A DNA stretch of 64,000 nucleotides from Actinoallomurus iriomotensis (GTDB taxonomy: Bacteria > Actinomycetota > Actinomycetes > Streptosporangiales > Streptosporangiaceae): assembly GCF_030269445.1 (NCBI RefSeq), contig NZ_BSTJ01000015.1, positions 132,649 to 196,648 of the forward strand, in the 5' to 3' direction. How positions within the stretch are numbered: position 1 is the stretch's first letter; each line of letters begins with the position of its first letter. The position numbers and the translations under genes are program-made. Positions 1 to 60,817 of the stretch are shown piece by piece. Below the pieces are notes generated by a model. It did no database searches, had not been told where the DNA came from, and worked only from the letters and a program-made list of their open reading frames with translations.

Positions 1-1713
1 CGAGGCGAGGTTGTTGTCGTAGGAGGAGGCCCCGCGTTTGCCCGGCGTGTGGTTCTCGCCGGTGTTGAGCTGCTGGGGGTCCTGGTAGACGCCGCGCGTG
101 GAGGTCTCCGAGGACGACTCGGACTCGAAGAAGAACTTGTCCGGATAGCGGGCGTGCAGCCCGTCGATCGAGGCCGCGGTGTTGTAGTTGAGGCCGATGC
201 CGTCGAGCATCCGCAGGATCTGGTCCTGGGCCGATCCGGGCGCCGGCACGCTGCGGTACTTGTCCGACCCCATGACGATCGGCCGGGTCGTGTCGACCGC
301 CCGGACGTCGGCGATGAGCCGCCGCGCGATCGGCACGCCGACCGTGACGGAGGTCGAGTCGGGGATCTCGTTGCCGATCGACCACATCACGACGGCCGGT
401 GAGTTCTTGGCCGCGTTCACCATCTCGGTGATGTCGGCGTCGCTGTTCGCGTCGAAGAACCGGCCGTAGTCGTACTTCACCTTCGGTGTGTGCCAGGTGT
501 CGAACGCCTCGACCATCATCACGATGCCGAGTTCCTCGCAGACCCGCACCATCGCCGGCGACGGCGGGTTGTGCGAGGTGCGGAAGGCGTTGACGCCCAT
601 GCTCTTCATGATCTTCATCTGCCGGTACAGGGCGTCCTCGGTGACGGCCGCGCCGAGCGCGCCTCCGTCGTGGTGCAGGTCGACGCCCTGCAGCTTCATC
701 CGCTGGCCGTTGAGGGAGAAACCGCCGTCCGGGCTGAAGGCGGACCAGCGGACGCCGAAGCGGGTCGTGGTCGTGTCCACGGTCCGGCCCGCCACGACGA
801 CGTCGGTGCGCAGCGTGTAGAGGTACGGGCGGGCGGTGGACCAGAGTTCGGGGTGATCGACGCGCAGGTCCGCCGCCGCGGTCCCCGCCGTCACGCCGGA
901 GGCTCCCCGGGCGACCGTACGGCCGCGGGCGTCCCGTACGGTCGCGACGACCTGCGTGTCCGCGGTCGCGCCGGCGACGTCCGTACGGGCGTGGACGTTC
1001 GCGTAGCCCGCCTTCACGGTGTTCGCCAGGTCCGGCGTGGTGACGAAGACGCCGTGCCGCTGGACGTGGACCGGCGCGGTGACGGTGAGGTGGACGTCAC
1101 GGTAGATGCCGCTGCCGGAGTACCAGCGGCTGCTGGGGAGCTGGTTGCGCACCTCGACCGCGAGCACGTTCGGCGTCGTCCCGTCGGTGTGCGCCAGGTC
1201 GGTCAGGTCCACGTCGAACCCGGTGTAGCCGTACGCGTGGGCGCCGACCTGCCGGCCGTTGAAGTAGATGACCGAGTCCATGTAGACGCCGTCGAACTCC
1301 GCGGAGATCCGCCGGCCGGCCATCGAGGAGGGCAGCGTGAAGGTCTTGCGGTACCAGCCGAGCCCGCCCTGCAGGAAGCCGGTGCCGGCGTTGGTGCCGC
1401 CGTCGGGCGTCGGGTCGCGCTCGATGCTCCAGTCGTGCGGGAGGTTCACCCGGCGCCACGAGGAGTCGTCGTAGCCCGGATCGGCGGCGTGCGCGTAGGC
1501 GCCGGTGGGGTCGGTGACGCCTTCCGGGTTGACGAGGGCGAACCGCCAGTCCTGGTCGAAGTCCACGCTCCGCCCGGTGCCGGCCACGTGTTCGGTGACG
1601 GCGGATCGCGGAGGTGGCGCGGCGGCCTGCGCCCTGGCGGGGAGGGCGGCGAGGACGAGCGACACGGCCACGAGCAGCCGGGTGGCGAAGGCGGCGCGGA
1701 AGGTTCCGGACAT
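1..1713 (-). CDS. Secreted glycoside hydrolase family 2 (beta-galactosidase/beta-mannosidase-like); 3' end runs off the left window edge
   Basis: Reverse-strand translation gives an N-terminal signal peptide (MSGTFRAAFATRLLVAVSLVLAALPARAQA). It is followed by GH2 motifs NAFRTSHNP and WSIGNE (acid/base Glu). The ORF track misses it because it is open at the window edge. Confidence 0.8.
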   Translation of the reverse strand, partial: MSGTFRAAFATRLLVAVSLVLAALPARAQAAAPPPRSAVTEHVAGTGRSVDFDQDWRFALVNPEGVTDPTGAYAHAADPGYDDSSWRRVNLPHDWSIERDPTPDGGTNAGTGFLQGGLGWYRKTFTLPSSMAGRRISAEFDGVYMDSVIYFNGRQVGAHAYGYTGFDVDLTDLAHTDGTTPNVLAVEVRNQLPSSRWYSGSGIYRDVHLTVTAPVHVQRHGVFVTTPDLANTVKAGYANVHARTDVAGATADTQVVATVRDARGRTVARGASGVTAGTAAADLRVDHPELWSTARPYLYTLRTDVVVAGRTVDTTTTRFGVRWSAFSPDGGFSLNGQRMKLQGVDLHHDGGALGAAVTEDALYRQMKIMKSMGVNAFRTSHNPPSPAMVRVCEELGIVMMVEAFDTWHTPKVKYDYGRFFDANSDADITEMVNAAKNSPAVVMWSIGNEIPDSTSVTVGVPIARRLIADVRAVDTTRPIVMGSDKYRSVPAPGSAQDQILRMLDGIGLNYNTAASIDGLHARYPDKFFFESESSSETSTRGVYQDPQQLNTGENHTPGKRGASSYDNNLAS

Positions 1714-1830
1714 CGGTGCCCTTCGGGTGCAGAAGGCGACCTTTGTTCGATATTCCGAACAAAGACTCGCATTACGGACACCCGACGATCCGTCAGGTCA
1801 GGGCGATCAGTCAAGAGCCCAAATTGGGCA

Positions 1831-2424: not shown

Positions 2425-5064
2425 TCAGTCGAGGATCTCGACGTATCCGTCGGTGCCGTGAACGCGGATCCGCTGCCCGTCCCGGATCAGCCGGGTGGCC
2501 TGCTCCACGCCCACCACGGCCGGCAGGCCGTACTCCCGCGCGATCACCGCCCCGTGCGTCATCAGGCCGCCCACCTCCGTCACCAGCCCGGCGACGGCGA
2601 CGAACAGAGGACTCCAGCTGGGATCGGTGTACGCGGTGACGAGGATGTCGCCCTCCTCAAGGTCGGCCTGCGCCATGTCCAGGATGACTCGGGCACGGCC
2701 CTCGACGGTCCCGGCCGAGACCGGGAGGCCGGCCAGCGCGCCGGGCGGGGCGTCGTCACGCCGATACCGGCCGGCGATGACCTCGCCGTCCGACGTGATG
2801 ACCCGGGGCGGTGTGAGCGCCTCGTACGACCGGAACGCCTCCCGCCTCTCCCGGATGAGTCCGGCGTCCGCGTCGCCCGTTCGCGCGACTTCCCGCAACT
2901 CCTGGAACCGGAGGAAGAAGATGTCCTCTCTCTCCCGCAGGACGCCGGACCGGACGAGGCGATCGGCCTCCCGCAGCAACGCCTGCTTGTAGATGAAGTA
3001 GCGGCTGACCATGTCGTACTTGGGGTACTCCCGGTATCCGGCGAAGGTGCGGACACGGTCGATCATCCGCTTGGTCTCCTCGGCCTTCTCGTCCCCGTCG
3101 GGCAGTGCGCGCAACCGCGTCAGCAGTTCCTGTTCTTTCTGTCGCGCCTCTTGGAGTCCTTGTTCGAAGCGTCGCCTGCCGGCGCCCGGCTCGAAGTTCT
3201 TGGCGTTGCCGAGAATGGTGGGGACGAGCGTGGCGGGATGCTCGCTCCAGCGCGTCCTGGTGATGTCGATCTCGCCCGCGCAGCGCATGCCGTACTCGTC
3301 GAGGTAGCCCCGGATGGCGTCACGCGCCTCCCGTCCGCCGGGCAACCCGGCCAGTTCGTCCAGGAAGCCGTCGCCCTCCCGGCCTTCGTCCACCACACGC
3401 TGCAGGAACGCCATGACGTCCGGGTGCGGCCGGACCGTGTCCGCGACGTCGAGGAGCGCCAGCCCCATCTCCGACGTGACGTTGTGGGGGACGGACTGCG
3501 TGAGCACGTCGGCCGCGTTCTTCTCGCCCAGCCACGTCTCCAGGTGGTCATTGAGCCACCAGCTCGCCTCCATCCCCGCCATGATCGCCGGGAGGCTCTG
3601 TGGATCGGACCGGACGCGCTTCAGCTCCGCGATGTCGGCCAGGATGAAGTCGAACAGCGCCGGCCCGGACAGATCCTCGATCTCGCGCCGCAGGGTGGCG
3701 ACGGACTCCTGACTCTGCCGGATCAGGCGGGTGACGATGGCCGGATCGGTCTCGATCGGGGCGGGTGGGTCACCGGCGGGTGCGGCGCCGGAATCCTCGT
3801 CCTCCGGAAGCGTGCGGACGAAGCCGCGGTCGACGACGGTTCGCAGCGCGTCCCGGATCAACGGGTCGGACCTCCCCAGAGTGTCGATGAGGCGTACGCG
3901 ACCCGCGTTCGTCGCCAGCACGGGGGCCACGTCGACGAACAACCGGCCGCCCGCCTCGGGCATCGGATGTGGGGTCGTCAGCTGCCACACGGAGAGTCCC
4001 AGCGGCTTCATCGCGTCGGTCATCATCTGCTGGTGACCGACGGAGACGTAGACGTGGTTCTCCTGGTCCTCGGTCGTCGGGATGGGGAACAGGGTGGTGA
4101 TCGGCCGGCTCTGGACGATGTGGAAGTCGTCGCCTGCCCGGCACCATTCGATGTCCTGGGGGCGGCCGAAGTGCGCTTCGATGCGCCGGCCCAGCCGCAC
4201 CAGGCGCACGACCTGCGCGTCCGTGAGAGCCGGCTGCGTCTGCCTCCGCGGTTCGATCGGCGTGTCCTGAACACCGCCTCCGGGCGACGCCTGGACGGAC
4301 CGCTCCTTGGTGGCGACCGTCGTGGTGACGACCTGGTCGTCACGCACCGTGTAGACGTCCCCGGCGACCAGACCGGAGACCAGCGCCTCCCCGAGCCCCC
4401 ACCCGGCCTCGACGGTGGCGGTCTTCCGGTCCGAGGTCACGGGATCCGCGGTGAACAGCATCCCGGCCGCGTCCGGGAACACCATCTGCTGCACGACCAC
4501 GGCCATCCGCACTTTCCGGTGATCGAAGCCATTACGGCACCGGTAGGTCACGGCCCGCTCGGTGAACAGCGAGGCCCAGCACCGCCGGACGTGGCGAAGG
4601 ATCTCCGTCAGGCCCACGATGTTCAGGTAGGAGTCCTGCTGGCCGGCGAAGGAGGCGGTCGGCAGGTCCTCGGCCGTCGCGCTGGAACGCACCGCGTAGG
4701 AGGCGTGCTCCCCGAGCCGGGTGAGCGACTCGCTGATCGCCGCCACGAGATCGTCGGGCATCGCGACGTCTTCGACGACGCGGCGTATCTCGGCGCTCAG
4801 GGTGCGGATCGCCTCGCGGTCGTCCGGTTCCACGCGCGCCAGAAGGTCGAGCTGAGCGTCGATCGACGGCGCCTCGGCCATGATCCGCTGGAAGGCGTCC
4901 GTCGTGACGCAGAAGCCGTCCGGCACGCGGACGCCATCGATTCGCGAGAGCTCGCCGAGGTGTGCCCCCTTTCCGCCGACGTCCGCGACATTCGTCGCGT
5001 CGATCTTCTCGAAGCCCATCACGTAGGCCAATTCCGTTGCTCCTTGCGTCGATTCGGTTCGCAA
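2425..5064 (-). CDS. rph: PEP-utilising phosphotransferase with rifampicin-phosphotransferase (RPH) architecture
   Basis: 879 aa. The N-terminus is a PPDK_N-like ATP-grasp domain (GGKGAHLGEL, FCVTTDAF). The swivelling phospho-His domain sits at the extreme C-terminus (GGLMTHGAVIAREYGLPAVVG) with no following TIM-barrel domain, which is the RPH layout rather than PpsA. An alternative start lies at M16. Confidence 0.65.
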   Translation of the reverse strand: MRTESTQGATELAYVMGFEKIDATNVADVGGKGAHLGELSRIDGVRVPDGFCVTTDAFQRIMAEAPSIDAQLDLLARVEPDDREAIRTLSAEIRRVVEDVAMPDDLVAAISESLTRLGEHASYAVRSSATAEDLPTASFAGQQDSYLNIVGLTEILRHVRRCWASLFTERAVTYRCRNGFDHRKVRMAVVVQQMVFPDAAGMLFTADPVTSDRKTATVEAGWGLGEALVSGLVAGDVYTVRDDQVVTTTVATKERSVQASPGGGVQDTPIEPRRQTQPALTDAQVVRLVRLGRRIEAHFGRPQDIEWCRAGDDFHIVQSRPITTLFPIPTTEDQENHVYVSVGHQQMMTDAMKPLGLSVWQLTTPHPMPEAGGRLFVDVAPVLATNAGRVRLIDTLGRSDPLIRDALRTVVDRGFVRTLPEDEDSGAAPAGDPPAPIETDPAIVTRLIRQSQESVATLRREIEDLSGPALFDFILADIAELKRVRSDPQSLPAIMAGMEASWWLNDHLETWLGEKNAADVLTQSVPHNVTSEMGLALLDVADTVRPHPDVMAFLQRVVDEGREGDGFLDELAGLPGGREARDAIRGYLDEYGMRCAGEIDITRTRWSEHPATLVPTILGNAKNFEPGAGRRRFEQGLQEARQKEQELLTRLRALPDGDEKAEETKRMIDRVRTFAGYREYPKYDMVSRYFIYKQALLREADRLVRSGVLREREDIFFLRFQELREVARTGDADAGLIRERREAFRSYEALTPPRVITSDGEVIAGRYRRDDAPPGALAGLPVSAGTVEGRARVILDMAQADLEEGDILVTAYTDPSWSPLFVAVAGLVTEVGGLMTHGAVIAREYGLPAVVGVEQATRLIRDGQRIRVHGTDGYVEILD

Positions 5065-5087: not shown

Positions 5088-5106
5088 TGGCGCCTCATGA
5101 GGCGCA
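5088..5106. promoter_or_regulatory. 16-bp perfect palindrome GCGCCTCATGAGGCGC between the GT4 stop and the rph start
   Basis: Read directly: ttGGCGCCTCATGAGGCGCactt, with the AT-rich ctgctataaagtgaaact nearby. It could be an operator or a terminator stem. Confidence 0.3.
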
Positions 5107-5147: not shown

Positions 5148-6269
5148 TCAGCCGGTCCGGCCGTCCACGAGCGCGAAGGCCCGTTCCCAGCGGTCGACGA
5201 TCGTGTCGGGGGCATACCTGCGGACCGAGACGCGCGCCGCGTCTCCCAGCGTGTCACGGAGTCGCCGATCGTCCATCAGCCGCTCCAGGGCGGCGGCGAA
5301 CTCCATCACGTTCCCCGGCGTCACGACCAGCCCGTCCCGCCCGTCGGTGAGCAGTTCCCGCACGCCCGGCGCGCAGTCGAAGGCGACCGTGGGCAGCCCG
5401 TACGCCATCGCCTCGATGATCGACATGGGGAAGCCCTCCTCCCGTGAGGAGAGCGCGAAGATCGAGGCGCCGGTCAGCGCGCTCTCCAGGTCGGAGGTCG
5501 AGCCGGGGAACTCCACACTGGCGTCCAGGCCGAGCGCGGCCGCGCCGCGCCGCAGCGCGTCCTCCTCGGGGCCCGTCCCGTACAGGCGCAACCGCCAGGA
5601 CGGGTGGCGCGCGGCCACCTCCGCCCAGGCCTCGAGCAGCATGTCCTGCCCCTTCTCGAAGGACAGCCGCCCGAGCCGTACGACCACCGGCTCGGTGCGC
5701 GGGGACGGCGACGCCGGTTCGACGTGGAGCGGGTTGGGCATGGCGGCGGCCCCCGACATGTCGTCGAACGCCCAGGCGTCCGCGTCGGCGCGGGTGAGCG
5801 CGAGGAACAGGTCCGCCCCGGCGAAGTGGCGTTTCACCCGCCGGTACCGCGACGACCGCCGCGTCGCCGCGTACGACTCATGGCTCATGCCGATGACCGG
5901 CATCCCCGCGGTGTCGGCACGCGCGACCCATTCCATCGCCCAGACCTGCGCCGCGATGACGACGCCGCCCGGCCGGGCGGTGCGCAGCAGCGCGCTCAGA
6001 CGCGCGGCGCCCTGGCGGACCGTGGCCCGGTGGGCGAGCCGGGACACCGGCCCGCGGCGCGGCCCCGGCCGGCGTTCGTGCAGGACGGTGACGGCGTACC
6101 GCGGGTCCCGGCCGTAGTCGTGGGACCGCTCCGCGTGCGTCACGCCGACGAGGTGGACGCGGTGGCCGCGGTCGGCGAACAGGTGGGCGATGTGGTGCGC
6201 CCACCGCTGGAGGCCGCCGAGCTCCTCGACGTTGTTGCAGACGATGAAGATGTCGCGGGACTCAGTCAC
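5148..6269 (-). CDS. Glycosyltransferase family 4 (GT-B, retaining)
   Basis: EX7E-type region (SSREEGFPMSIIEAMAYGLPTVAFD), 373 aa. Its start overlaps the stop of the upstream GT2-TagF gene by 8 bp. Confidence 0.8.
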   Translation of the reverse strand: MTESRDIFIVCNNVEELGGLQRWAHHIAHLFADRGHRVHLVGVTHAERSHDYGRDPRYAVTVLHERRPGPRRGPVSRLAHRATVRQGAARLSALLRTARPGGVVIAAQVWAMEWVARADTAGMPVIGMSHESYAATRRSSRYRRVKRHFAGADLFLALTRADADAWAFDDMSGAAAMPNPLHVEPASPSPRTEPVVVRLGRLSFEKGQDMLLEAWAEVAARHPSWRLRLYGTGPEEDALRRGAAALGLDASVEFPGSTSDLESALTGASIFALSSREEGFPMSIIEAMAYGLPTVAFDCAPGVRELLTDGRDGLVVTPGNVMEFAAALERLMDDRRLRDTLGDAARVSVRRYAPDTIVDRWERAFALVDGRTG

Positions 6270-9117
6270 GGCCGCCTCCGGTGAAGAAACGCTCGACGAT
6301 GGCCTTGGCCGCGGTGCCGGTGTCGTACTCGCCGAAGCGCTCGGTGAACAGCCGGCGCCGGTCGGCGTGGTCCCGGTGCACGCGGTCGAGGTCGGCCAGC
6401 GCGGCGAACAGCCCGTCCTCGTCGGCGACGATCGGCCCCGGTGCGTGAGCGGCCAGGTCGAAGTACGCGCCGCGCCGCAGGGCGTAGTCGTCGCCGTCGG
6501 GCGTGTAGAAGATCATCGGGCGGTCGCGGAGCGCGTAGTCGAACATGACCGACGAATAGTCGGTGACCAGCGCGTCGGCGAGCAGCAGCAACGGCGTGAC
6601 GTCGTGGACTCCGCCGACGTCGACGACGGTGCCGCGCAGGCCGGGCGGCACCACCGCCGTGCTCAGGTAGTGCGCGCGGATGAGGAGCACGTGCGAGTCG
6701 CCGAGTTCGCGCGCGAAGCGTTCGAGGTCGAACGGCGCCTCGAACCGTGCGACCGGCCGCCCCTCCTCGTCGGCACGGAACGTCGGCGCGTACAGCACGA
6801 CCGTACGGGCGTCACCGTCGAGCCCCAGGCGGCGGCGCAGCTCGGCCAGTTCCTCCGGGTCGCCGCCGCTCACGAGCGGATCGTTGCGCGGGTACCCGGC
6901 CCGCAGGGGCGGTGCGGTCACGCCGAGGCCTCCGGCCAGCGTCCGCACGTCGTGCTCGGACCGTACGACGAAGTGGTCGAACCGGCCGGCCATGGTGCGC
7001 CGCCGTACGTGCTCGGCTCTGGTGCCCTGCTTGACGGACGGCTCGTCGAAGCCCATGCGTTTGTACGCCGAGCCGTGCCAGGTCTGGATGTAGGTGGTCT
7101 GACGGCGCTTGGTGAGCCCGGCGGGGAAACCCTGGTTGTCGACCCAGAACTCGGCGCGGGCCAGCGCGCGGTAGTACGCCCACGACCCGCGCTTGACCAG
7201 GACGGCGTCCTTGGGGAAGCCCCGCCTGCTCTGGTCGTAGGACCAGATCGCACGGTATGACGTACCGCGCCGGCGCAGTTCGAGGTGAACGTACTTCGGG
7301 TTGTCGGAGTACTGGGCTCCGAGGTGGCTCTCGAAGACGACGGTGCCCTTCCTGACCGGCAGCCGCACGAGCACGCGGTTGAACACGGCGATCTTCGTCG
7401 CGCGGCCGGTGAGCCGCCTGCGCAGCGCCTTCTCGGCGCGTATGAGGCTCCGCCAGAACCGCACTCCCAGTCCGGTGCGGGCGACGTCACGGATCAGCGG
7501 CAGGACGGCGCGGGCGGGAAGGCTGCGTCCGACGATGCGGAACGCCAGCTCTCCGGAGTCGGCGACGTACGCCTCCAGGCGGTCACCGACGATCCGGGTC
7601 AGCCGGGGCCGTACCGGCACCTCGACGCCCTTGTGGGCGGTGCCGGTCGAGGTCAGGCGGACCACGACGGTCTCCTCACCGACGTCGACGCACAGCCAGA
7701 GCCCCCAGGTCTGGTCCACCAGCCCGATCGGCCGGATCCGGCGGACCGGCGCGAACCTCGCCTGCCAGCCGATCCGGTCGCCCTCGTGGCGCAACGTCAC
7801 CGGAACGCGGAACGCTCGGCCCTTCCTGCGGCGGTCCCGGATCTCCAGCCTGCCGGTGAGCTCCGTGGCGGCGCCGATCCGCCCCAGAGGATTGATGAAG
7901 TCGCCCGTGAGGGACAGCTCGTGCCCCTCCGTCCTCATGGCCGTCAGCCGGCCGCCGAGCCGGAGGTGCTCGAGCGGCACGGAGTGGATGCCCAGGTCGG
8001 TGACGTCGAGGATGCGACGGCCCGGCGCGGTGTCGAGGAAGGCCTCGGACCAGTAGATCAGACCGTCGCGTTCGACCGGCGCGATCGACAGCGTCGGGGG
8101 CACATCCCTCCTCGGCGCGCGGTCCGCGGCGGCGATCGCCCCGTCCAGGTCACCCTGCCCGACGAGGAAGCCGGCGATCGCGGCCATCGGGTTGCACTCC
8201 TCGAACACCGCGGTGTCCATCGTCGCCAGGTATCCCTGGGCGAGTTCGAGGAAGGCCTCGCGGTAGTCCGGGTCGCGGCTGCGGAGCTCGCGCAGGTAGA
8301 GCAGCAGGTCGTGGTTGACGAACTTGACGTTCTTGTGCTTCGCGAGCTCCTCGGCGCCACGGATCCGGAAGGTGGCGTCGATCCGCCGGTGGATCTCCAG
8401 CCGGTCGGCGAAGTTGCGCAGTTCGGCGCGGCGGTGCGTGATCGACAGCGTCTCTCCGCGCGGGACGATGAGCCAGTTGTAGACCCGGTGCGGAATGATC
8501 GCGATCTTTCGCGCGCTGACGTAGGCCTGCGCGCTGAACAGCAGGTCCTCGTAGTGCAGGCGGTCGACGAACAGCAGCCCCTCGCGTTCGAGGAAGTCGC
8601 GCCGGTAGCACTTGTTGGTCGAGAGGGTGTCGTACAGCAGGTCGGGCTCGTCCAGGATGTTCGTCACGACGCGCGACTCGCGGTAGAGCGACGGGTACCA
8701 GTTCTGCTCGCGCTCCGGCAGCACCCGGACGCAGCGGCCGGAGACCAGTTCGGCCCCGGTCTCCTCGGCGGTGCTCACGAGGTTCCGGCACGCGTGCGGA
8801 TCGAGGGTGTCGTCGCTGTCGAGGAACATCACGTAGCGGCCGCGCGCCTGCTCCATCCCGGCGTTGCGGGGGCGTCCGCACCCGCCGGAGTTCTCGGGCA
8901 GAGTGATCACGCGGACGCGGTCCGGCCGCCCGGCGGCGAGCCGCGCCGCCACTCGTGGGGTCGCGTCCGTGCTGGCGTCGTCGACGATGACGACCTCCAC
9001 GCCCGCCAGCGACTGCGCCAGCACCGAGCGGACCGCGCGGGCCAGGCGCCCCGCGTCGTTATAGACGATCACGATGACCGTGACGTCGGGTTCTCTTACC
9101 GGAAGGCTCACACTCAT
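6262..9117 (-). CDS. Bifunctional GT2 glycosyltransferase / CDP-glycerol glycerophosphotransferase (TagF/TagB-like) fusion
   Basis: The N-terminus is a GT-A fold (VTVIVIVYNDAGRLARAV, VVIVDDASTD, DSDD). The C-terminal approximately 370 aa resemble the TagF family (YIQTWHG, YAPTFR, VTDYSSVMFDY). 951 aa. Confidence 0.8.
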   Translation of the reverse strand: MSVSLPVREPDVTVIVIVYNDAGRLARAVRSVLAQSLAGVEVVIVDDASTDATPRVAARLAAGRPDRVRVITLPENSGGCGRPRNAGMEQARGRYVMFLDSDDTLDPHACRNLVSTAEETGAELVSGRCVRVLPEREQNWYPSLYRESRVVTNILDEPDLLYDTLSTNKCYRRDFLEREGLLFVDRLHYEDLLFSAQAYVSARKIAIIPHRVYNWLIVPRGETLSITHRRAELRNFADRLEIHRRIDATFRIRGAEELAKHKNVKFVNHDLLLYLRELRSRDPDYREAFLELAQGYLATMDTAVFEECNPMAAIAGFLVGQGDLDGAIAAADRAPRRDVPPTLSIAPVERDGLIYWSEAFLDTAPGRRILDVTDLGIHSVPLEHLRLGGRLTAMRTEGHELSLTGDFINPLGRIGAATELTGRLEIRDRRRKGRAFRVPVTLRHEGDRIGWQARFAPVRRIRPIGLVDQTWGLWLCVDVGEETVVVRLTSTGTAHKGVEVPVRPRLTRIVGDRLEAYVADSGELAFRIVGRSLPARAVLPLIRDVARTGLGVRFWRSLIRAEKALRRRLTGRATKIAVFNRVLVRLPVRKGTVVFESHLGAQYSDNPKYVHLELRRRGTSYRAIWSYDQSRRGFPKDAVLVKRGSWAYYRALARAEFWVDNQGFPAGLTKRRQTTYIQTWHGSAYKRMGFDEPSVKQGTRAEHVRRRTMAGRFDHFVVRSEHDVRTLAGGLGVTAPPLRAGYPRNDPLVSGGDPEELAELRRRLGLDGDARTVVLYAPTFRADEEGRPVARFEAPFDLERFARELGDSHVLLIRAHYLSTAVVPPGLRGTVVDVGGVHDVTPLLLLADALVTDYSSVMFDYALRDRPMIFYTPDGDDYALRRGAYFDLAAHAPGPIVADEDGLFAALADLDRVHRDHADRRRLFTERFGEYDTGTAAKAIVERFFTGGGRD

Positions 9118-9140
9118 CGCCCTGACCGTGAGGAGATATC

Positions 9141-9172
9141 TACTATTTCGGTAGTACGACCGCGACAGTAGG
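9141..9172. promoter_or_regulatory. Candidate BlaI-type operator O1, upstream of the GT2-TagF gene
   Basis: TACTATTTCGGTAGTACGACCGCGACAGTAGG contains the core GTAC-G-ACCGCGA-C-AGTA. The same core occurs at 9741 and 11011. TACTA-N6-TAGTA is an inverted repeat. Confidence 0.55.
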
Positions 9173-9311
9173 AGGGCGTGGGTTACCGGAAGGCAAAGGT
9201 GTGCTTACCTATGCGGGAGCACGCGTCGGCGCGACGACGATGAGGGATACGCGCACACACCGGACCCGCCCGGCGGCGAACCGGGCGTCGATCAGGCCGA
9301 GGGGCCGCCCC

Positions 9312-9725
9312 TCAGGCGTCCTCGCCGCCGCGCAGCAGCCGCTGCAGAAGCGCCTCGTCCTCCGGGCTCAGCGACGACACGAACCTCGCCAGCACTCCCG
9401 CGTGGTCGTGGCGGCGACTCAGCAGATCGGTCATCGCCCGCGCGGTGTGGGAGGCCTCGTCGACGGTGGGGAGGTAGGAGTACCCCTTCTTCACCGGGCG
9501 GCGAGACACCAGCCCTTTTCGGTGCATACGCGCCAGAGTGGACATCACCGTCGTGTAGGCGAGCCGGTCGTCCAGCCGGTCCCGCACCTCGGCGGGCGTC
9601 ATCGCCCGCCCGGCCGTCCAGAGCACGGCCAGCACCTCGTCCTCGAGCATCCCGGGCTGACGCCTGGCGCCACCGCCGGAGGACCGCCCGACGGAGGGCT
9701 CGCGCGCAGGGGACTCGGCACTCAT
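9312..9725 (-). CDS. BlaI/MecI/CopY-family transcriptional repressor (penicillinase-repressor fold)
   Basis: Winged helix LEDEVLAVLWTAGRAMTPAEVRDRL..AYTTVMSTLARMHRKGLVSRR...GYSYLP is followed by a C-terminal dimerisation helix. 137 aa. Confidence 0.85.
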   Translation of the reverse strand: MSAESPAREPSVGRSSGGGARRQPGMLEDEVLAVLWTAGRAMTPAEVRDRLDDRLAYTTVMSTLARMHRKGLVSRRPVKKGYSYLPTVDEASHTARAMTDLLSRRHDHAGVLARFVSSLSPEDEALLQRLLRGGEDA

Positions 9726-9740
9726 TCCGCCGAGCGTACT

Positions 9741-9767
9741 CTCCGGTAGTACTACCGCGATAGTGAA
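9741..9767. promoter_or_regulatory. Candidate BlaI-type operator O2, about 16 bp upstream of the blaI-like start (autoregulation)
   Basis: CTCCGGTAGTACTACCGCGATAGTGAA contains the 12-bp perfect palindrome GGTAGTACTACC and the core GTAC-T-ACCGCGA-T-AGTG. Confidence 0.6.
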
Positions 9768-9934
9768 CCCGCTCGCCGCAGCTCAGCGCCGCATTCGCCA
9801 TATTCGCCGCACCGTCCGACCACCACGATGACGCGGCGCAGGCGACGCCGCACAGGTGGGGCCGATACATCTGACTGAAGGACGAGGACATCGACCGCGC
9901 GCTCCGGGTCGAAGCCCCCGGACGGATCACGGCA

Positions 9935-10984
9935 TCAGATGACGCGGCGGCGCAGCAGCACGGCGAAGGTGCACGCGGCGGGTGGCAGCGGCAGCCAGAC
10001 CGTGATCATCCGATAGCCGAGGACGGTCGCGACGGCGGCCGTCGAGGAGACGCCCGCGGCGACGAGTCCCGCGACCAGGGCCACGTCCAGGCCTCCGATG
10101 GCGCCGGGCGACGGGACCACCGCCGTCAGCGAGGACATGCCGAGGTAGACGACCAGCACCGTCCCGGCGCCGATCGATGCCTGGAGGCCGCGCAGCAGCG
10201 AGAACAGGATGAACGCGTGGAAGAGCGGCAGAGTCAGCGAGCCGAGCCAGAGCGCGGCGGCCCGGCCCGGATGGCGCAGGACCTCGCCCAGCTCGCGCAT
10301 CTCCCGTACGAGCCGCCGCGCCGCCGAGGCCACCCGTCGAGCGCGTCGCCGCAGCCGCCGCCTCGATCCGCGCAGCGCGACCAGGGCCCCGGCCGACAGC
10401 ACGGCCGCTCCGACGGCCGCGAACGCGACCGGCCCATGTGACGACGGCGGGACGATGGTCCGTACGTCCGGCCGCGGCAGGTGGACGCCCACGCGGACCA
10501 GCGTCGACGGGGCGACCGCGACGGCGGCCGCCAGCAGCACGACGTGGGTGATCCCGGTGGCCAGGGAGTTCAGTCCCACCGCGCCCACGGCGGCGCCGCG
10601 GCTGATCCCCTGTCGCTGCAGGAAACGCACGTTGACCGCCATCGCCCCCGAGCCGGCGGGCAGCAGGTGGTTGGCGAAGGACGCCGCGAACTGGACGGCG
10701 AGCACCCGCCCGAGCGGCGGGCGCACCGGGATGGTGCCGAGCAGCGACACCGCGCCGGCGAGCCACATCGCCACGGTGGCGAGCACCGCGAGTACGAGCC
10801 ACTCCCCGTCCGCCCCGGCCAGGCTGTCCCCGCCGGCGTCGACGGCCGTACGATGCGCGACGCCCAGCACGACCACCGCCAGTGCGGCGCCGGCGCCCAG
10901 CAGCACTTTCACGGCGGGCCGCCGGAGAGGCTCCCCGGCCCACACGCCATCGGGATCCGCGGACCGCCGGGACCGTCGCCTCAC
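9935..10984 (-). CDS. Flippase-like / lysylphosphatidylglycerol-synthase-TM-family (UPF0104) integral membrane protein
   Basis: 349 aa, about 8 TM helices, Gly/Ala-rich helices typical of the LPG_synthase_TM family. The family is often partnered with GT2 enzymes. Confidence 0.65.
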   Translation of the reverse strand: MRRRSRRSADPDGVWAGEPLRRPAVKVLLGAGAALAVVVLGVAHRTAVDAGGDSLAGADGEWLVLAVLATVAMWLAGAVSLLGTIPVRPPLGRVLAVQFAASFANHLLPAGSGAMAVNVRFLQRQGISRGAAVGAVGLNSLATGITHVVLLAAAVAVAPSTLVRVGVHLPRPDVRTIVPPSSHGPVAFAAVGAAVLSAGALVALRGSRRRLRRRARRVASAARRLVREMRELGEVLRHPGRAAALWLGSLTLPLFHAFILFSLLRGLQASIGAGTVLVVYLGMSSLTAVVPSPGAIGGLDVALVAGLVAAGVSSTAAVATVLGYRMITVWLPLPPAACTFAVLLRRRVI

Positions 10985-11010
10985 ACCAGCCCCAATCCGC
11001 TCGAACCGAT

Positions 11011-11039
11011 CAACTACCGCGATAGTACTTGCAGTCCGG
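11011..11039. promoter_or_regulatory. Candidate BlaI-type operator O3, in the 70-bp gap upstream of the flippase-like gene
   Basis: CAACTACCGCGATAGTACTTGCAGTCCGG carries the same ACTACCGCGATAGTAC core. It is nearly identical to O2. Confidence 0.55.
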
Positions 11040-11053
11040 CAGGAGGTTCGTGC

Positions 11054-12316
11054 TCAGCCGAGGTTCCGCGGTACGCCGTAGCGGTGCCGGCCGGCGGCGG
11101 CCGGGGTGAAACGTACGGGCAGCGCGGTCAGGGCGCGGTGGAACGGGCCGGGCCGCCAGGTCGCCTCGCCGCCCGGGAACGCCAGCCTCAGACCGGGCAG
11201 GCCGTCGAGCAGCTTCTCGATGGCGACCGTCGCGATGAGGAGCGCCGGCCGCTTCGCCGGGCAGCCGTGCGGGCCCGCACCCCAGGCGAGGTGCGCCCGG
11301 TTGCCGACGCGTGATCCCGACGTGGTGTACGGGTCGGTGTTCGCGGCGGAGTAACCGATCACCACCGGCTGGTGCGCGGGCAGGATCGTCCCGCGGAACT
11401 CCACGTCGTGCCGGGGATAGGTGAAGCCGAAGTTCGCGATCGGCGGGTCGGTCCACAGCAGTTCGTCCAGCGCGTCCTCGATGAGCAGGTTGCCGCCCCA
11501 GACGTCGCCGGCCACCTCCTCGCTGGCCAGCAGCAGGTGGACGCCGTTGGCGATGAGGTTCTGCTGCGGTTCGGCCCCGGCGCCCATGAGGAGGAGCACC
11601 TGGTGCAGCGCCTCCTCGTCGGACAGCCCCGCCGGGTCCGCCAGGATCTGGGAGGTCAGATCCTGGCCCGGCCGGCGCCGTTTCAGCGCGATCAGCTCGG
11701 CGACGCCCCGGCTGAGCTCGGCGTTGGCCTTCTCCGCGTCGACGCCGTCGAAGATGCCCTTGTACCCGCGGGCCAGCCGCTCGCTGAGGGCGGGCGGACA
11801 GCCGAGGAGCCGGTTGAAGAGCAGCAGCGGCAGGGGCCGGGCGAACTGGGCCAGCAGGTCGGCCTCACCCGCGGCGGCGAACCCGGCGATGAGCTCCTCG
11901 GCGATGTCGCCCACCTGCTCACGCAGCGAGGACGGGTCGATGAGATCCAGCGCGTGGGTGACCGCCTGCCGCAGCCGCGTGTGCACCGGGTCGTCCGTGT
12001 ACATGCAGTTCGGCCGGTACATCATCAGCGGCAGCACCGGGCAGTCCGGCGGGATGTGCCGCTGCCACTGGCGCGGGTCCTTGGGGAAGGTCACCGGATC
12101 GCGCAGCACCTCGAGTGCGGCCTCGTAACCGATGATGAGGGTCGCCGGCACGCCGGGCGCCAGTTCGACCGGCACGGCCTCGCCGTACTCCCGCATCCGC
12201 GCGTAGGCCCACGCGGGGTCCGAGGCGAAGGCCTGGTCGTACAGCCGTACCCGCTCGAGCTGCTCGGCGGGCGCGGGCGGCGGAGCATGGCCGGCTCGGC
12301 GGGGCGCGGTGTCCAT
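11054..12316 (-). CDS. Cytochrome P450
   Basis: Heme loop HLAWGAGPHGCPA (FxxGxHxCxG), an ExxR-like region, 420 aa. Confidence 0.9.
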   Translation of the reverse strand: MDTAPRRAGHAPPPAPAEQLERVRLYDQAFASDPAWAYARMREYGEAVPVELAPGVPATLIIGYEAALEVLRDPVTFPKDPRQWQRHIPPDCPVLPLMMYRPNCMYTDDPVHTRLRQAVTHALDLIDPSSLREQVGDIAEELIAGFAAAGEADLLAQFARPLPLLLFNRLLGCPPALSERLARGYKGIFDGVDAEKANAELSRGVAELIALKRRRPGQDLTSQILADPAGLSDEEALHQVLLLMGAGAEPQQNLIANGVHLLLASEEVAGDVWGGNLLIEDALDELLWTDPPIANFGFTYPRHDVEFRGTILPAHQPVVIGYSAANTDPYTTSGSRVGNRAHLAWGAGPHGCPAKRPALLIATVAIEKLLDGLPGLRLAFPGGEATWRPGPFHRALTALPVRFTPAAAGRHRYGVPRNLG

Positions 12317-19756: not shown

Positions 19757-19778
19757 GGTGAGTGCACTAGTGCGGAGG
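19757..19778. promoter_or_regulatory. Palindromic operator candidate B (GAGTGCACTAGTGCGGAGG) overlapping the RBS of the GntR-TetR regulator
   Basis: It has the same GTGCACTAGTGC core as 19680-19693, directly abutting the GGAGG RBS. Confidence 0.5.
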
Positions 19779-20734
19779 TGGTTCCGGTGGAACGGGGAAC
19801 GTCGCGTTCGGGCCAGATCGTGGCCGAGCTGCGGCACCGGATCGTGACGGGCGAGCTGGCGCCGGGCGATCGCGTGCCCTCCACCCGGGAGATCACCCGG
19901 CGGTGGGGCGTCGCGATGGCGACCGCCACGAAGGCGCTCACGCAGCTCCGCCACGAGGGCCTGGTCCGCGCGGTGCCCGGCGTCGGCACGGTCGTGGCGA
20001 CCGGCACGGGTTCCGCGCCGCGGCCCGCCGCCGCGCGGCCGGGCGGGCCGCGCCCGCGCCAGAGGCGCGGGGACGAGCAGGCGGCGTCCACGCGGATCGT
20101 CGCGGCCGCGATCGCCGTCGCCGACGCGGAGGGGCTCACCTCGGTCTCGATGCGCCGCGTCGCCGCCGAACTCGGCATGGCGACGATGTCGCTGTACCGG
20201 TACGTCACCGACAAGGACGACCTGCTGGCGCAGATGATGGACGCGGCCTTCGCCGAGCAGCCCCTTCCCGACGAACCGCCGGAGGGCTGGCGCGACCGGC
20301 TGGAGCTCGCCGCCCGGACGCTGTGGGCGATGTTCCGCCGTCACCCCTGGCTCGCGCCCGCCCTCTCGGTGACCCGGCCGCAGCCGTTGCCCAACGCCCT
20401 CCCGTTCACCGAGTGGATGCTGGGCTCCCTGGCGGACCGGCTCGACGTGCAGACGATCCTGACCATCCACCTCACCCTGTTCAACTGGGTGCGGGCCACC
20501 GCGATCAGCATGGAGGCCGAAGCGGAGGCCGAGGCTCTCAGCGGCCTGGACGCCGAAGAGTGGATGGACGGCCAGGAACCGGCGCTGCGGGAGATCTTCG
20601 CCACCGGCCGGTTCCCGCTGTTCGAACGGCTCAACACGGAGGGGTACGACTTCGACCTCGACGGCCTCTTCGAGTTCGGCCTGCAACGGCTCCTGGACGG
20701 CCTCGCCGTCTTCGTCGGCGAGGCGCCGCGCTGA
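19778..20734 (+). CDS. Fused GntR-type wHTH + TetR-family regulator
   Basis: N-terminal GntR HTH (RVPSTREITRRWGVAMATATKALTQLRHEGLV), then a TetR HTH (LTSVSMRRVAAELGMATMSLYRYVTDKDDLL) and a ligand domain. An alternative GTG start at 19787 gives better RBS spacing. Confidence 0.8.
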   Translation: MVPVERGTSRSGQIVAELRHRIVTGELAPGDRVPSTREITRRWGVAMATATKALTQLRHEGLVRAVPGVGTVVATGTGSAPRPAAARPGGPRPRQRRGDEQAASTRIVAAAIAVADAEGLTSVSMRRVAAELGMATMSLYRYVTDKDDLLAQMMDAAFAEQPLPDEPPEGWRDRLELAARTLWAMFRRHPWLAPALSVTRPQPLPNALPFTEWMLGSLADRLDVQTILTIHLTLFNWVRATAISMEAEAEAEALSGLDAEEWMDGQEPALREIFATGRFPLFERLNTEGYDFDLDGLFEFGLQRLLDGLAVFVGEAPR

Positions 20735-20746
20735 CGTCGGACGCGG

Positions 20747-20992
20747 TCAGCGGCGCAACTCGATGACCTCGACGAGGCTCTCGACGTCGACGTGGGCGAG
20801 CGCTGCCTCCGCCGACCGGTAGTACCCCTGCCCGAGGCCCGGAGTCCCGGGGCCGAGCAGCACCCGGCGCCACGAGACGCGGATCCACTGCTGCGGGCCA
20901 TGACCACGATCGAGACGGATCACCTCGACACGCCGCCCGTACCGATCGACCATGACACTCACCGGGACAGCGTACGTGACCTGCGCGAACAC
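20747..20992 (-). CDS. Small hypothetical protein (81 aa)
   Basis: Non-Arg-rich composition, convergent with the regulator gene. No recognisable domain. Confidence 0.35.
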   Translation of the reverse strand: MFAQVTYAVPVSVMVDRYGRRVEVIRLDRGHGPQQWIRVSWRRVLLGPGTPGLGQGYYRSAEAALAHVDVESLVEVIELRR

Positions 20993-21117
20993 CGGTGACG
21001 GGCGGCTCGGGCACGGCGCCGCCCCGGGCGGGGCCGGCCAAGCGCGTAGCAGTCATACCGCCACACGGTGGACAATGGGCGTTCCCCACGCGCACCAACC
21101 GTTCACCGGAGGCGACC

Positions 21118-23910
<2,793 letters not shown>

Positions 23911-52714: not shown

Positions 52715-53905
52715 ATGATCAACGGACTTATTGGCCGCAATCGGCCGATCAAGAAGCCGACCCCCTTCCGTCAGTTCATTCTCAAGGTGCACAGTCGGTG
52801 CAATCTCGCCTGCACCTACTGCTATCTGTACACGATGGCCGATCAGCGCTGGCGGCATCGGCCACCCGTCATGTCCGCCCGAATCGCGGACTTAGCCGCG
52901 GCCCGGATCGCCGAGCACGTGCGGTCGCACGACCTGACCGACATCGCGGTCGTCCTGCACGGCGGAGAACCGCTCCTGGCCGGCCCCGATCGGCTTCGCC
53001 ACGTCGTGACGGCCGTGCGCGGCGCGGTGGGCGACGCCGCGACGGTCGACTTCTCCCTCCAGAGCAACGGGACCCTGCTCGACCGCCGCTTCCTGACCCT
53101 GTTCGACGAGCTGGGGATCCGCGTCGGAGTCAGCCTGGACGGCGACGCGGCCGCCCACGACCGCGCCCGGCGCAGGCCGCGAGGCGGCAGTCACGCCCAG
53201 GTCACGCGAGGGCTGGACGCGCTGACGGGCCCGGAGTTCGGTCACCTGTTCTCCGGGCTGCTGTGCGTCATCGACCTGGCCAACGACCCGATCGCGACCT
53301 ACGAGGCGCTGCTGGCCTTCTCGCCGCCCGCGATCGACCTGCTGCTGCCGCACGCCAACTGGAGCAACCCGCCGGCCGGACCGGCGGGCGCGTACGCGGC
53401 CTGGCTGATCCCCATCTTCGACCGCTGGTTCCACGCACCGGTGCGCGAGACGCGGATCCGGCTGTTCGAGGAGATCATCAATGTGCTTCTCGGCGGCGCG
53501 TCGGCCGTCGAGGGGATCGGGACGAGCCCCGCCGCGATGATCGTCGTGGAGACCGACGGGCAGATCGAGCAGTCGGATATCCTCGCCGCGGCTTTCGACG
53601 GCGCCGCGTACCTCGGCCTGGACGTCGGCGATGACGATTTCGATGCCGCGCTCCGACATCCTGCCACCATCGCCCGCCAATTAGGCATGACCGGAATACC
53701 CGGGGAGTGCCGCGAGTGCCGCTGGGCGGCCGTATGCGCGGGCGGACATTATTCCCATCGTTATCAGGACCAAAAAGGGTTCGACCATCGTTCGGTTTAC
53801 TGTGCCGACCTTTTCGCGTTGTTCGACCACATCCGTACGGCACTGGTCGCCGCACTCGCGGCGCGCGCCGCCGCCTCCCCTCCGGCGCTGACCGTCATCC
53901 CGTAG
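52715..53905 (+). CDS. Radical SAM / SPASM-domain enzyme (FxsB-like peptide maturase)
   Basis: CNLACTYCY (CxxxCxxC) and a C-terminal SPASM Cys cluster (GECRECRWAAVCAGGHY...VYCAD). 396 aa. Confidence 0.85.
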   Translation: MINGLIGRNRPIKKPTPFRQFILKVHSRCNLACTYCYLYTMADQRWRHRPPVMSARIADLAAARIAEHVRSHDLTDIAVVLHGGEPLLAGPDRLRHVVTAVRGAVGDAATVDFSLQSNGTLLDRRFLTLFDELGIRVGVSLDGDAAAHDRARRRPRGGSHAQVTRGLDALTGPEFGHLFSGLLCVIDLANDPIATYEALLAFSPPAIDLLLPHANWSNPPAGPAGAYAAWLIPIFDRWFHAPVRETRIRLFEEIINVLLGGASAVEGIGTSPAAMIVVETDGQIEQSDILAAAFDGAAYLGLDVGDDDFDAALRHPATIARQLGMTGIPGECRECRWAAVCAGGHYSHRYQDQKGFDHRSVYCADLFALFDHIRTALVAALAARAAASPPALTVIP

Positions 53906-60784: not shown

Positions 60785-60817
60785 CAGTGGTCCTTCATCG
60801 CGGGAGTGAGAATTGAA

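Follow-up and report, generated by a model that had tools for sequence, protein, structure and literature searches.

An orphan BlaI-family repressor and its predicted operators at envelope-glycopolymer genes of Actinoallomurus iriomotensis

We analysed a 64-kb stretch of the Actinoallomurus iriomotensis genome (contig NZ_BSTJ01000015.1, positions 132,649 to 196,648 of the forward strand; hereafter the window), in which a 137-amino-acid (aa) BlaI-family protein is encoded among genes for cell-envelope glycopolymers. The locus holds a member of a known regulator family that has been orphaned but is still under constraint, and its predicted operators have good support. Overall we lean, with moderate confidence, towards a reading in which the protein is a dimeric repressor of its own gene, of a GT2-TagF/GT4 gene pair and of an LPG_synthase_TM gene. 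It would be a family member that has been stripped of its protease, and its induction perhaps takes place in trans. Genes of the window (71% G+C) were called by codon-position G+C analysis and Pfam. The central features are listed below, with site scores from the weight matrix described in the next section.

9140-9157, site O1a, CTACTATTTCGGTAGTAC; 28.5 bits, the strongest of the four; 23 nt before the ATG of GT2-TagF
9154-9171, site O1b, GTACGACCGCGACAGTAG; 14.3 bits, the weaker half of a tandem pair, with GTAC in common with O1a
9749-9766, site O2, GTACTACCGCGATAGTGA; 22.9 bits; 24 nt before the ATG of blaI
11011-11028, site O3, CAACTACCGCGATAGTAC; 25.0 bits; 27 nt upstream of the LPG_synthase_TM GTG at 10984
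9312-9725, minus strand, blaI-like gene, 137 aa (PF03965, 3e-22)
6262-9117, minus strand, fusion of GT2 and Glyphos_transf (TagF/TarF-type) domains, 951 aa, first candidate target (PF00535, 2.8e-35; PF04464, 9.8e-94)
5148-6269, minus strand, GT4 glycosyltransferase (PF00534, 7.5e-41)
9935-10984, minus strand, LPG_synthase_TM "flippase-like" membrane protein, second candidate target (PF03706, 2e-33)

The BlaI-family protein and its predicted operators

The original prediction, made from the letters of the window, proposed three near-identical operators with the core GTAC-(T/G)-ACCGCGA-(T/C)-AGT(A/G). A search with the degenerate core ACKACCGCGAYAGT gave three exact matches, at 9156-9169 (the O1b match), 9751-9764 and 11013-11026, and an independent repeat search of the window returned the same three-copy family (D2). 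At up to two mismatches 10 matches were found against 2.66 expected, a number that none of 100 shuffles reached. The three core copies are therefore exact as claimed, but there are four sites in the three promoter gaps, and the strongest of them (9140-9157) had gone uncounted. The proposed core fits O1 and O2; O3 reads CAAC, so that the core common to all copies is AC(T/G)ACCGCGA(T/C)AGT. Read on the gene strand, the palindrome unit is ACTA-N6-TAGT, set in the wider consensus cTACTAYCGCGRTAGTAg (TACTA-YCGCGR-TAGTA). The published mycobacterial BlaI box is reportedly a TAC(G/T)AC...GT(A/C)GTA dyad, which would resemble O1b (TACGAC...).

The sites were scored with an 18-bp weight matrix derived solely from 31 sites of other genomes; the window was excluded, and so was L001, the A. 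iriomotensis locus that is its 96%-identical relative. Besides the four sites, the scan of the window gave one more match that reached 8 bits, at 58366-58383; it was rejected as a fifth site on its background-level score (9.9 bits) and its position inside a long open reading frame (ORF). Over 200 shuffles the mean was 0.32 matches per window at 12 bits or more, and the top shuffle score was 19.7. The sites lie 23-27 nt from the minus-strand start codons ATG 9117, ATG 9725 and GTG 10984, which bears out the proposal that each copy stands directly upstream of a minus-strand gene; the true start of LPG_synthase_TM may be up to 72 nt further downstream, according to the L001 annotation. The perfect palindrome placed in O2, GGTAGTACTACC, was recovered at 9745-9756, where it forms the junction of O2 with a degenerate neighbouring site.

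The L001 locus aligns collinearly with the window (96.8% DNA identity). O2 is 100% conserved there as part of the roughly 90 bp that precede the blaI ATG, which are fully identical; the remaining intergenic region is 73% identical. Tandem layouts like that of O1a and O1b also occur in three further related loci (L005, L010 and L002). Orthologues of O1a are kept upstream of GT2-TagF in Actinoallomurus (L005, L010) and in Actinomadura (L013, L015, L017, L041, L049), 23-33 nt from the start codon, and an O3 equivalent is found in L005, 27 nt upstream of the LPG_synthase_TM ORF. From their score, position and conservation the four sites are very probably BlaI operators, and O2, by its position, is the predicted autoregulatory site.

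We examined whether the element could instead be a promoter element, e.g., of an extracytoplasmic function (ECF) sigma factor, or could serve some unrelated regulator that the three genes happen to have in common. Its left half, TACTAT/TACTGT, is compatible with the actinobacterial -10 pattern TANNNT. However, the element is a two-fold symmetric palindrome, and ECF promoters are not known to be palindromic. It also stands upstream of blaI in dozens of unrelated loci that have blaI as their sole common feature, and its half-sites hold the TAC/GTA trinucleotides of the classical S. aureus and B. licheniformis operator, TACANNTGTA (PMC1935004). We give this explanation very little credence.

The proposal of a BlaI-family repressor held up. 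The 137-aa protein matched the Penicillinase_R profile PF03965 at 3e-22 and 79.6 bits (cutoff 22.6), with residues 25-132 covering profile positions 2-114 of 115, i.e., end to end, and by sequence it is unambiguously a full-length winged-helix repressor of the BlaI/MecI/CopY family. Profile matches in the PDB were 2G9W, 1P6R, 1SD4 and 1OKR, the best being M. tuberculosis BlaI, 2G9W (profile E 4.4e-15). Identity to the M. tuberculosis protein is low (phmmer E 1.9e-6); the recognition helix, AYTTVMSTLARMHRK in the window, is nearly identical to that of M. tuberculosis BlaI Rv1846c, AYTTVMAVLQRLAKK. A CopY-type metal repressor was considered and rejected: the protein has zero cysteines and no CxC or CxCx4CxC motif, and it scored 26.1 bits with TIGR02698 against a cutoff of 121.95. 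CopY and TcrY also belong to PF03965 and have no BlaR-type protease, but the window protein lacks their CxCx4CxC motif and no copper ATPase genes lie nearby.

The closest database protein was a BlaI-family protein of A. iriomotensis (96% identical). The closest non-trivial relative is locus L005, whose BlaI is 79% identical. The ratio of nonsynonymous to synonymous substitution rates (dN/dS) of blaI was 0.37 against L001 and 0.26 against L005, and the window protein retains 33 of the 33 family-invariant positions. The window blaI is thus under purifying selection, and the operators, too, would have stayed under selection.

BlaI of S. aureus is cleaved at N101-F102 (PMC1935004). The window residues R114-F115 would be the putative positional counterpart of this cleavage site. 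They align with H-F of M. tuberculosis BlaI (the F of LVHFVERV); the HMMER alignment to S. aureus BlaI itself stops at residue 87 and leaves the C-terminal domains unaligned. Among 31 homologues, paired with a protease and orphan alike, F115 was invariant and R114 nearly so, and the region showed no difference between orphans and protease-paired homologues.

Compared with BlaI-BlaR1 and MecI-MecR1 of S. aureus and B. licheniformis, the window likewise has a PF03965 protein, a site at the repressor's own promoter, multiple or tandem dyads and TAC/GTA half-sites. Its operator TACTA-N6-TAGTA shares only these trinucleotides with TACANNTGTA, however, and no adjacent BlaR1/MecR1, penicillin-binding sensor, beta-lactamase or PBP2a is present. 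Dyad operators at own and target promoters, a hallmark of the BlaI family, appear to be matched by the window palindromes, which are conserved across genera.

The operators front the GT2-TagF/GT4 unit and the flippase-like LPG_synthase_TM gene, in agreement with the suggestion that the apparent targets are genes of wall-polymer synthesis and translocation. In the 951-aa fusion the GT2 domain spans residues 13-177 and the CDP-glycerol glycerophosphotransferase domain residues 579-945. PF04464 was spanned over its full length, so that membership of the TagF/TarF family holds, while all scores fell far under the equivalog cutoffs (TarF 205 of 550, TarL 90 of 1000 and TarB 55 of 500 bits). Because the GT4 start and the GT2-TagF stop overlap by 8 nt, the two genes are probably co-transcribed; their pairing is kept in L005 and L010. 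The LPG_synthase_TM protein has no MprF synthase domain, and its similarities to TIGR00374 and to the MprF N-terminus were both below cutoff.

Loss of the protease and DedA genes

As had been predicted, the locus has no M56 protease. No BlaR-like M48/M56 protease gene was found in the 64-kb window by tblastn with four proteases of related loci (best E=0.02) or by Pfam scans of the called genes. The comparison with L005 speaks to the history of this absence. The gene order in L005 is LPG_synthase_TM, DedA, ZIP, blaI, M48, GT2-TagF, GT4, with the protease gene at 7511-8527 (PF01435/PF05569). By blastn, window positions 9326-9778 correspond to the blaI region of L005 and positions 5158-9200 to its GT2-TagF/GT4 region. 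Two short segments of the window mark where genes are missing.

9201-9325, junction segment between the blastn breakpoints; 125 bp, against 1650 bp in L005, protease gene included
9831-9901, plus strand, DedA/VTT gene remnant of 70 bp; blastn identity of 81-86% to L005, L006 and L010

Because L005 has an M48 gene between blaI and GT2-TagF at the homologous position, the absence of the protease is a lineage-specific and recent loss, not the original design.

The DedA remnant sits between O2 and the LPG_synthase_TM stop codon, and tblastn detected it over 23 aa (78% identity, E 5e-6). Intact DedA/VTT genes (PF09335) are present in L005 (4859-5485), L006 (10399-11058) and L010 (12703-13374), in the latter two with an operator directly upstream; in L001 the remnant has decayed further. 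The conserved element at 9831-9900 had also been considered as a small RNA or regulatory element and was rejected as such, being the DedA/VTT coding-sequence remnant. Rfam gave no RNA family in the whole window at the gathering threshold or in 9100-11100 at E up to 1. The window locus is thus the compacted derivative of a fuller BlaIR and lipid-carrier locus from which the DedA and protease genes were deleted. A second blaI, bacA, PAP2 or ZIP gene was not found in the 64-kb window.

Related loci and possible routes of release

Relatives were collected as 80 loci from a scan of species-representative genomes and typed by tblastn, and their BlaI proteins were placed on a neighbour-joining tree. 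An M48/M56 protease gene lies directly downstream of blaI in about 70 of the 80. These proteases are about 310-360 aa long; those that were domain-checked (326-357 aa) contained PF01435 and/or PF05569 only, and no penicillin-binding module. The hallmark of sensor-less BlaIR systems, a blaI gene with an M56/M48 protease gene, is therefore found in most relatives, including L005, and is absent from the window. M. tuberculosis offers a close likeness, in that its BlaR, Rv1845c, is also sensor-less: the window relatives similarly have a short M48/M56 protease without a beta-lactam-binding domain after blaI. The window differs from Rv1846c/Rv1845c in having no protease gene and in its candidate targets: genes for wall-polymer and flippase-like proteins stand in place of blaC or ATP-synthase genes.

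It had been supposed that BlaI/MecI repressors are normally tied to beta-lactamase or PBP2a. A beta-lactam-binding domain is present in only about 6% of BlaR-like proteins, and sensor-less BlaR-like systems with envelope regulons are on record (PMC13492132). Among the called genes of the window, Pfam scans detected no beta-lactamase or transpeptidase domain. Because about 70 of the 80 relatives are protease-paired, and because the same operator type stands before envelope genes in related loci, a beta-lactam circuit does not seem to have been repurposed at this locus; we regard it instead as a degraded member of a widespread envelope-linked actinobacterial BlaIR-like family. CenIR of C. difficile, too, is a non-canonical BlaIR system with a cell-envelope regulon, but CenI has its protease CenR alongside, the regulon (cdr_0474, cwp6, ldt1) is unrelated to TagF, LPG_synthase_TM, bacA and DedA, and the organism belongs to a different phylum.

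Exact ACTA-N6-TAGT occurred in 53 copies in 1.45 Mb of related loci, against about 2 expected from base composition, and nearly all of them were immediately upstream of blaI, GT2-TagF, LPG_synthase_TM or bacA. The gene bacA, for undecaprenyl-diphosphatase, is adjacent to or divergent from blaI in about 20 of the 80 loci. To define an inferred regulon, 116 sites that scored 14 bits or more were taken from 62 of 83 loci, and the 140 genes directly downstream were Pfam-scanned. They comprised 48 BlaI, 12 VTT/DedA, 11 BacA and 7 PAP2 genes, as well as 8 GT2 (7 with TagF), 5 ABC_tran ATPases, 3 ZIP and 2 LPG_synthase_TM. At the 48 other blaI genes the operator mostly lies about 13-30 nt before the start codon, as in the window, a spacing that fits an overlap with short-leader or leaderless promoters.

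BacA and PAP2 enzymes dephosphorylate undecaprenyl pyrophosphate, and TagF-type polymerases make polymers that are built on the undecaprenyl carrier. DedA proteins are undecaprenyl phosphate flippases (PMC9876793, PMC12893004). Because the functions of BacA/PAP2, DedA and TagF all touch this carrier, we hypothesise, from gene neighbourhood and motif conservation, that the operator-linked genes have a common lipid-carrier theme. The core of the regulon would be bacA/uppP, PAP2 and DedA, and TagF-type genes would be part of it in Thermomonosporaceae, a family in which the operator type also precedes LPG_synthase_TM genes. In the literature searched, whose coverage was incomplete, no prior description was found of a BlaIR-like link to undecaprenyl, bacA, PAP2, DedA or TagF genes. 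Firmicutes respond to carrier stress and bacitracin (sigma-M on bcrC/uptA, BceRS-AB, LiaRS) by raising an undecaprenyl pyrophosphatase, an undecaprenyl phosphate flippase and an ABC transporter. The likeness of these responses to the bacA, PAP2, DedA, ABC transporter and two-component genes of the relatives is a functional analogy only: the Firmicutes regulators are ECF sigma factors and two-component systems, in contrast to a proteolysis-controlled repressor in the BlaI family.

Several gene associations of the relatives were recorded on the side. ZIP zinc transporter genes lie next to blaI of this clade in L005 (6168-7043), L006 (11648-12484) and L010 (10409-11308), some of them with an upstream operator; the recurrence is curious, the partner protease being a zinc enzyme. 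Operons of an ABC transporter (ABC_tran and ABC2_membrane) with a HisKA_3/GerE two-component system adjoin BlaIR-like loci in L002 (12709-16565, preceded by a 31-bit operator) and L085 (1291-4890), and look like bacitracin- or lantibiotic-type resistance modules. L085, a metagenome contig, also holds a reverse orphan at 5877-6987, where an M48 BlaR-like protease gene follows only a 40-aa ORF and no full blaI, with PAP2 adjacent. A gas-vesicle cluster (gvpA/F/G/K/L/O-type) lies upstream of a bacA-M48-blaI module in A. liliacearum (L002, 532-4197) and in a metagenome locus (L087, 9362-11371).

On the neighbour-joining tree the window BlaI grouped with L005 and a paralogue of A. liliacearum, both with M48 downstream, and with L006. 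A protease-less blaI directly upstream of GT2-TagF was also found in five Actinomadura loci from four species. Because these belong to a different BlaI subclade, the protease-less blaI/GT2-TagF layout has either originated or been maintained on more than one occasion. The two A. liliacearum contigs covered (L002 and L010) together encode at least three proteases and five BlaI proteins.

In the proposed mechanism a BlaI dimer would bind the 16-18-bp palindromes TACTA-YCGCGR-TAGTA about 23-27 nt before the three start codons. Occupancy of O2 would lead to autorepression of blaI, double occupancy of O1a and O1b would repress the GT2-TagF/GT4 wall-glycopolymer operon, and occupancy of O3 would repress the LPG_synthase_TM gene. 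By analogy with BlaR1, in the family a membrane M48/M56 protease, which has no recognisable sensor domain, would cleave the repressor and induce the regulon. Our best guess is that the orphan is released by cleavage in trans at R114-F115, by a BlaR-like protease that a paralogous pair at another locus of the genome would supply, because paralogues in sister species, which have several such pairs, show the same operator type and putative scissile region. Binding of BlaI to the sites, repression by this binding and the route of induction are what we infer from comparative data. Two candidate proteases for this genome were dropped as metagenome-derived.

The paralogues also allow a different arrangement, in which a paralogous, still protease-paired BlaI is the relevant binder and the local orphan competes or heterodimerises with it, leaving the promoters buffered or locked off, with little or no inducibility. 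BlaI paralogues of different subclades have a common operator consensus, in sister species the several BlaI paralogues outnumber the proteases (e.g., A. liliacearum, L002 and L010), and GT2-TagF adjoins BlaI genes of two subclades in different genera. However, the perfect conservation of O2 at the promoter of the orphan suggests that this gene is itself under regulation, and the orphan is under purifying selection with every family-invariant residue kept. We consider this arrangement unlikely.

Release without proteolysis, by a small-molecule or metal ligand or by dilution and turnover, would make the protease loss the mark of a change of mechanism. The window, with no protease in its 64 kb, is compatible with this, and orphan BlaI upstream of GT2-TagF in the five Actinomadura loci indicates that the protease-less layout is evolutionarily stable. 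CopY is an example of metal regulation of this fold, genes for ZIP zinc transporters turn up repeatedly nearby in L005, L006 and L010, and the conserved stretch RRHDHAG is rich in histidine. A metal ligand is at odds with the missing cysteines and CopY-type CxC motif and with the score of 26 bits with the CopY model (cutoff 122). The putative scissile region, moreover, is equally conserved in orphans and paired homologues, which would be unexpected if cleavage were irrelevant. We rate this route as improbable.

A dimeric BlaI repressor, perhaps released by trans cleavage, remains our preferred reading, and the following points weigh against it. With the proteases of L005 and L002 as queries, none of the best 120 database matches was named as A. 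iriomotensis, though at least seven named Actinoallomurus species were listed. The reading gives no reason for a repressor tied to the supply of the lipid carrier to restrain, in addition, a polymerase that consumes it. The comparison loci were all collected via blaI, so targets were sampled only within 10 kb of blaI, and the recognition-helix peptide was among the patterns used to collect them. The tree, built on about 110 residues, is not robust. The assignment of the motif to BlaI is based on co-occurrence and position. A consensus scan of 9050-11150 found no sigma-70-type promoter, and the overlap of operator and promoter is therefore assumed from the distance to the start codon.

Other genes of the window and implications for the family

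The genes that flank the predicted circuit are as follows.

1-1797, minus strand, GH2 hydrolase (codon-position G+C and Pfam)
2425-5064, minus strand, PPDK_N/PEP-utilizer protein, 879 aa
11054-12316, minus strand, P450-like protein, 420 aa

The gene at 2425-5064, directly downstream of GT4, encodes the rifamycin-inactivating phosphotransferase Rph (NF041857, 1546.6 bits; cutoff 999). The AT-rich gap upstream of it holds, at 5090-5105, a 16-bp palindrome without mismatches, GCGCCTCATGAGGCGC, which may be a rifamycin-associated regulatory element. This suggests that rph is under its own control, outside the BlaI-controlled operon; rph does not adjoin GT4 in L005 or L010. The 420-aa protein had no Pfam match at E up to 0.001. 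It contains a P450-like Cys-ligand loop, HLAWGAGPHGCPA, and its NCBIfam matches were weak (best TIGR04515, P450-derived glycosyltransferase activator, 88 bits against a cutoff of 343). Its gene lies next to genes for an FAD-dependent oxidoreductase and a Methyltransf_19 protein. The product may be either a P450 that has diverged or an accessory protein derived from one.

Further away, at 20980-23910 on the plus strand, a 976-aa protein combines a Ser/Thr protein kinase domain with an extracellular solute-binding domain (SBP_bac_5) in one fusion, and a GntR-TetR double-domain regulator gene (19757-20734) adjoins it. Between 53895 and 60275 two very long ORFs on opposite strands overlap, one of 2063 aa on the minus strand (53895-60083) and one of 1761 aa on the plus strand (54993-60275). 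Each has high third-position G+C, and another ORF call, 58778-60817 on the minus strand, overlaps the pair.

For the family as a whole, the same palindrome ties blaI-blaR pairs to bacA, PAP2 and DedA in many Actinomycetota, and to a TagF-type operon in Actinoallomurus and Actinomadura. These genes all use or recycle undecaprenyl phosphate, which would make the cycle of this carrier, or bacitracin-type compounds that inhibit it, the first candidate signal. A whole BlaI/BlaR-like subfamily in Actinomycetota that has no recognisable sensor domain may even be a proteolytic sensor of the undecaprenyl-phosphate/-pyrophosphate cycle, inducing BacA, PAP2, DedA, ABC transporters and, in Thermomonosporaceae, TagF-type genes, with the window orphan as one node of a network of several paralogous repressors that have one operator type in common and are served by fewer proteases in trans; we put this forward tentatively, as a possibility that we do not yet hold to be the probable one.

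"BlaI family" in the annotation of such genes should not be taken here to mean beta-lactam resistance. With the protease and DedA genes gone and the repressor and operators kept, the window offers a natural experiment on the trans cleavage of BlaI paralogues. The hypothesised family-wide association with the undecaprenyl-phosphate cycle would be a more interesting result than the window locus itself.

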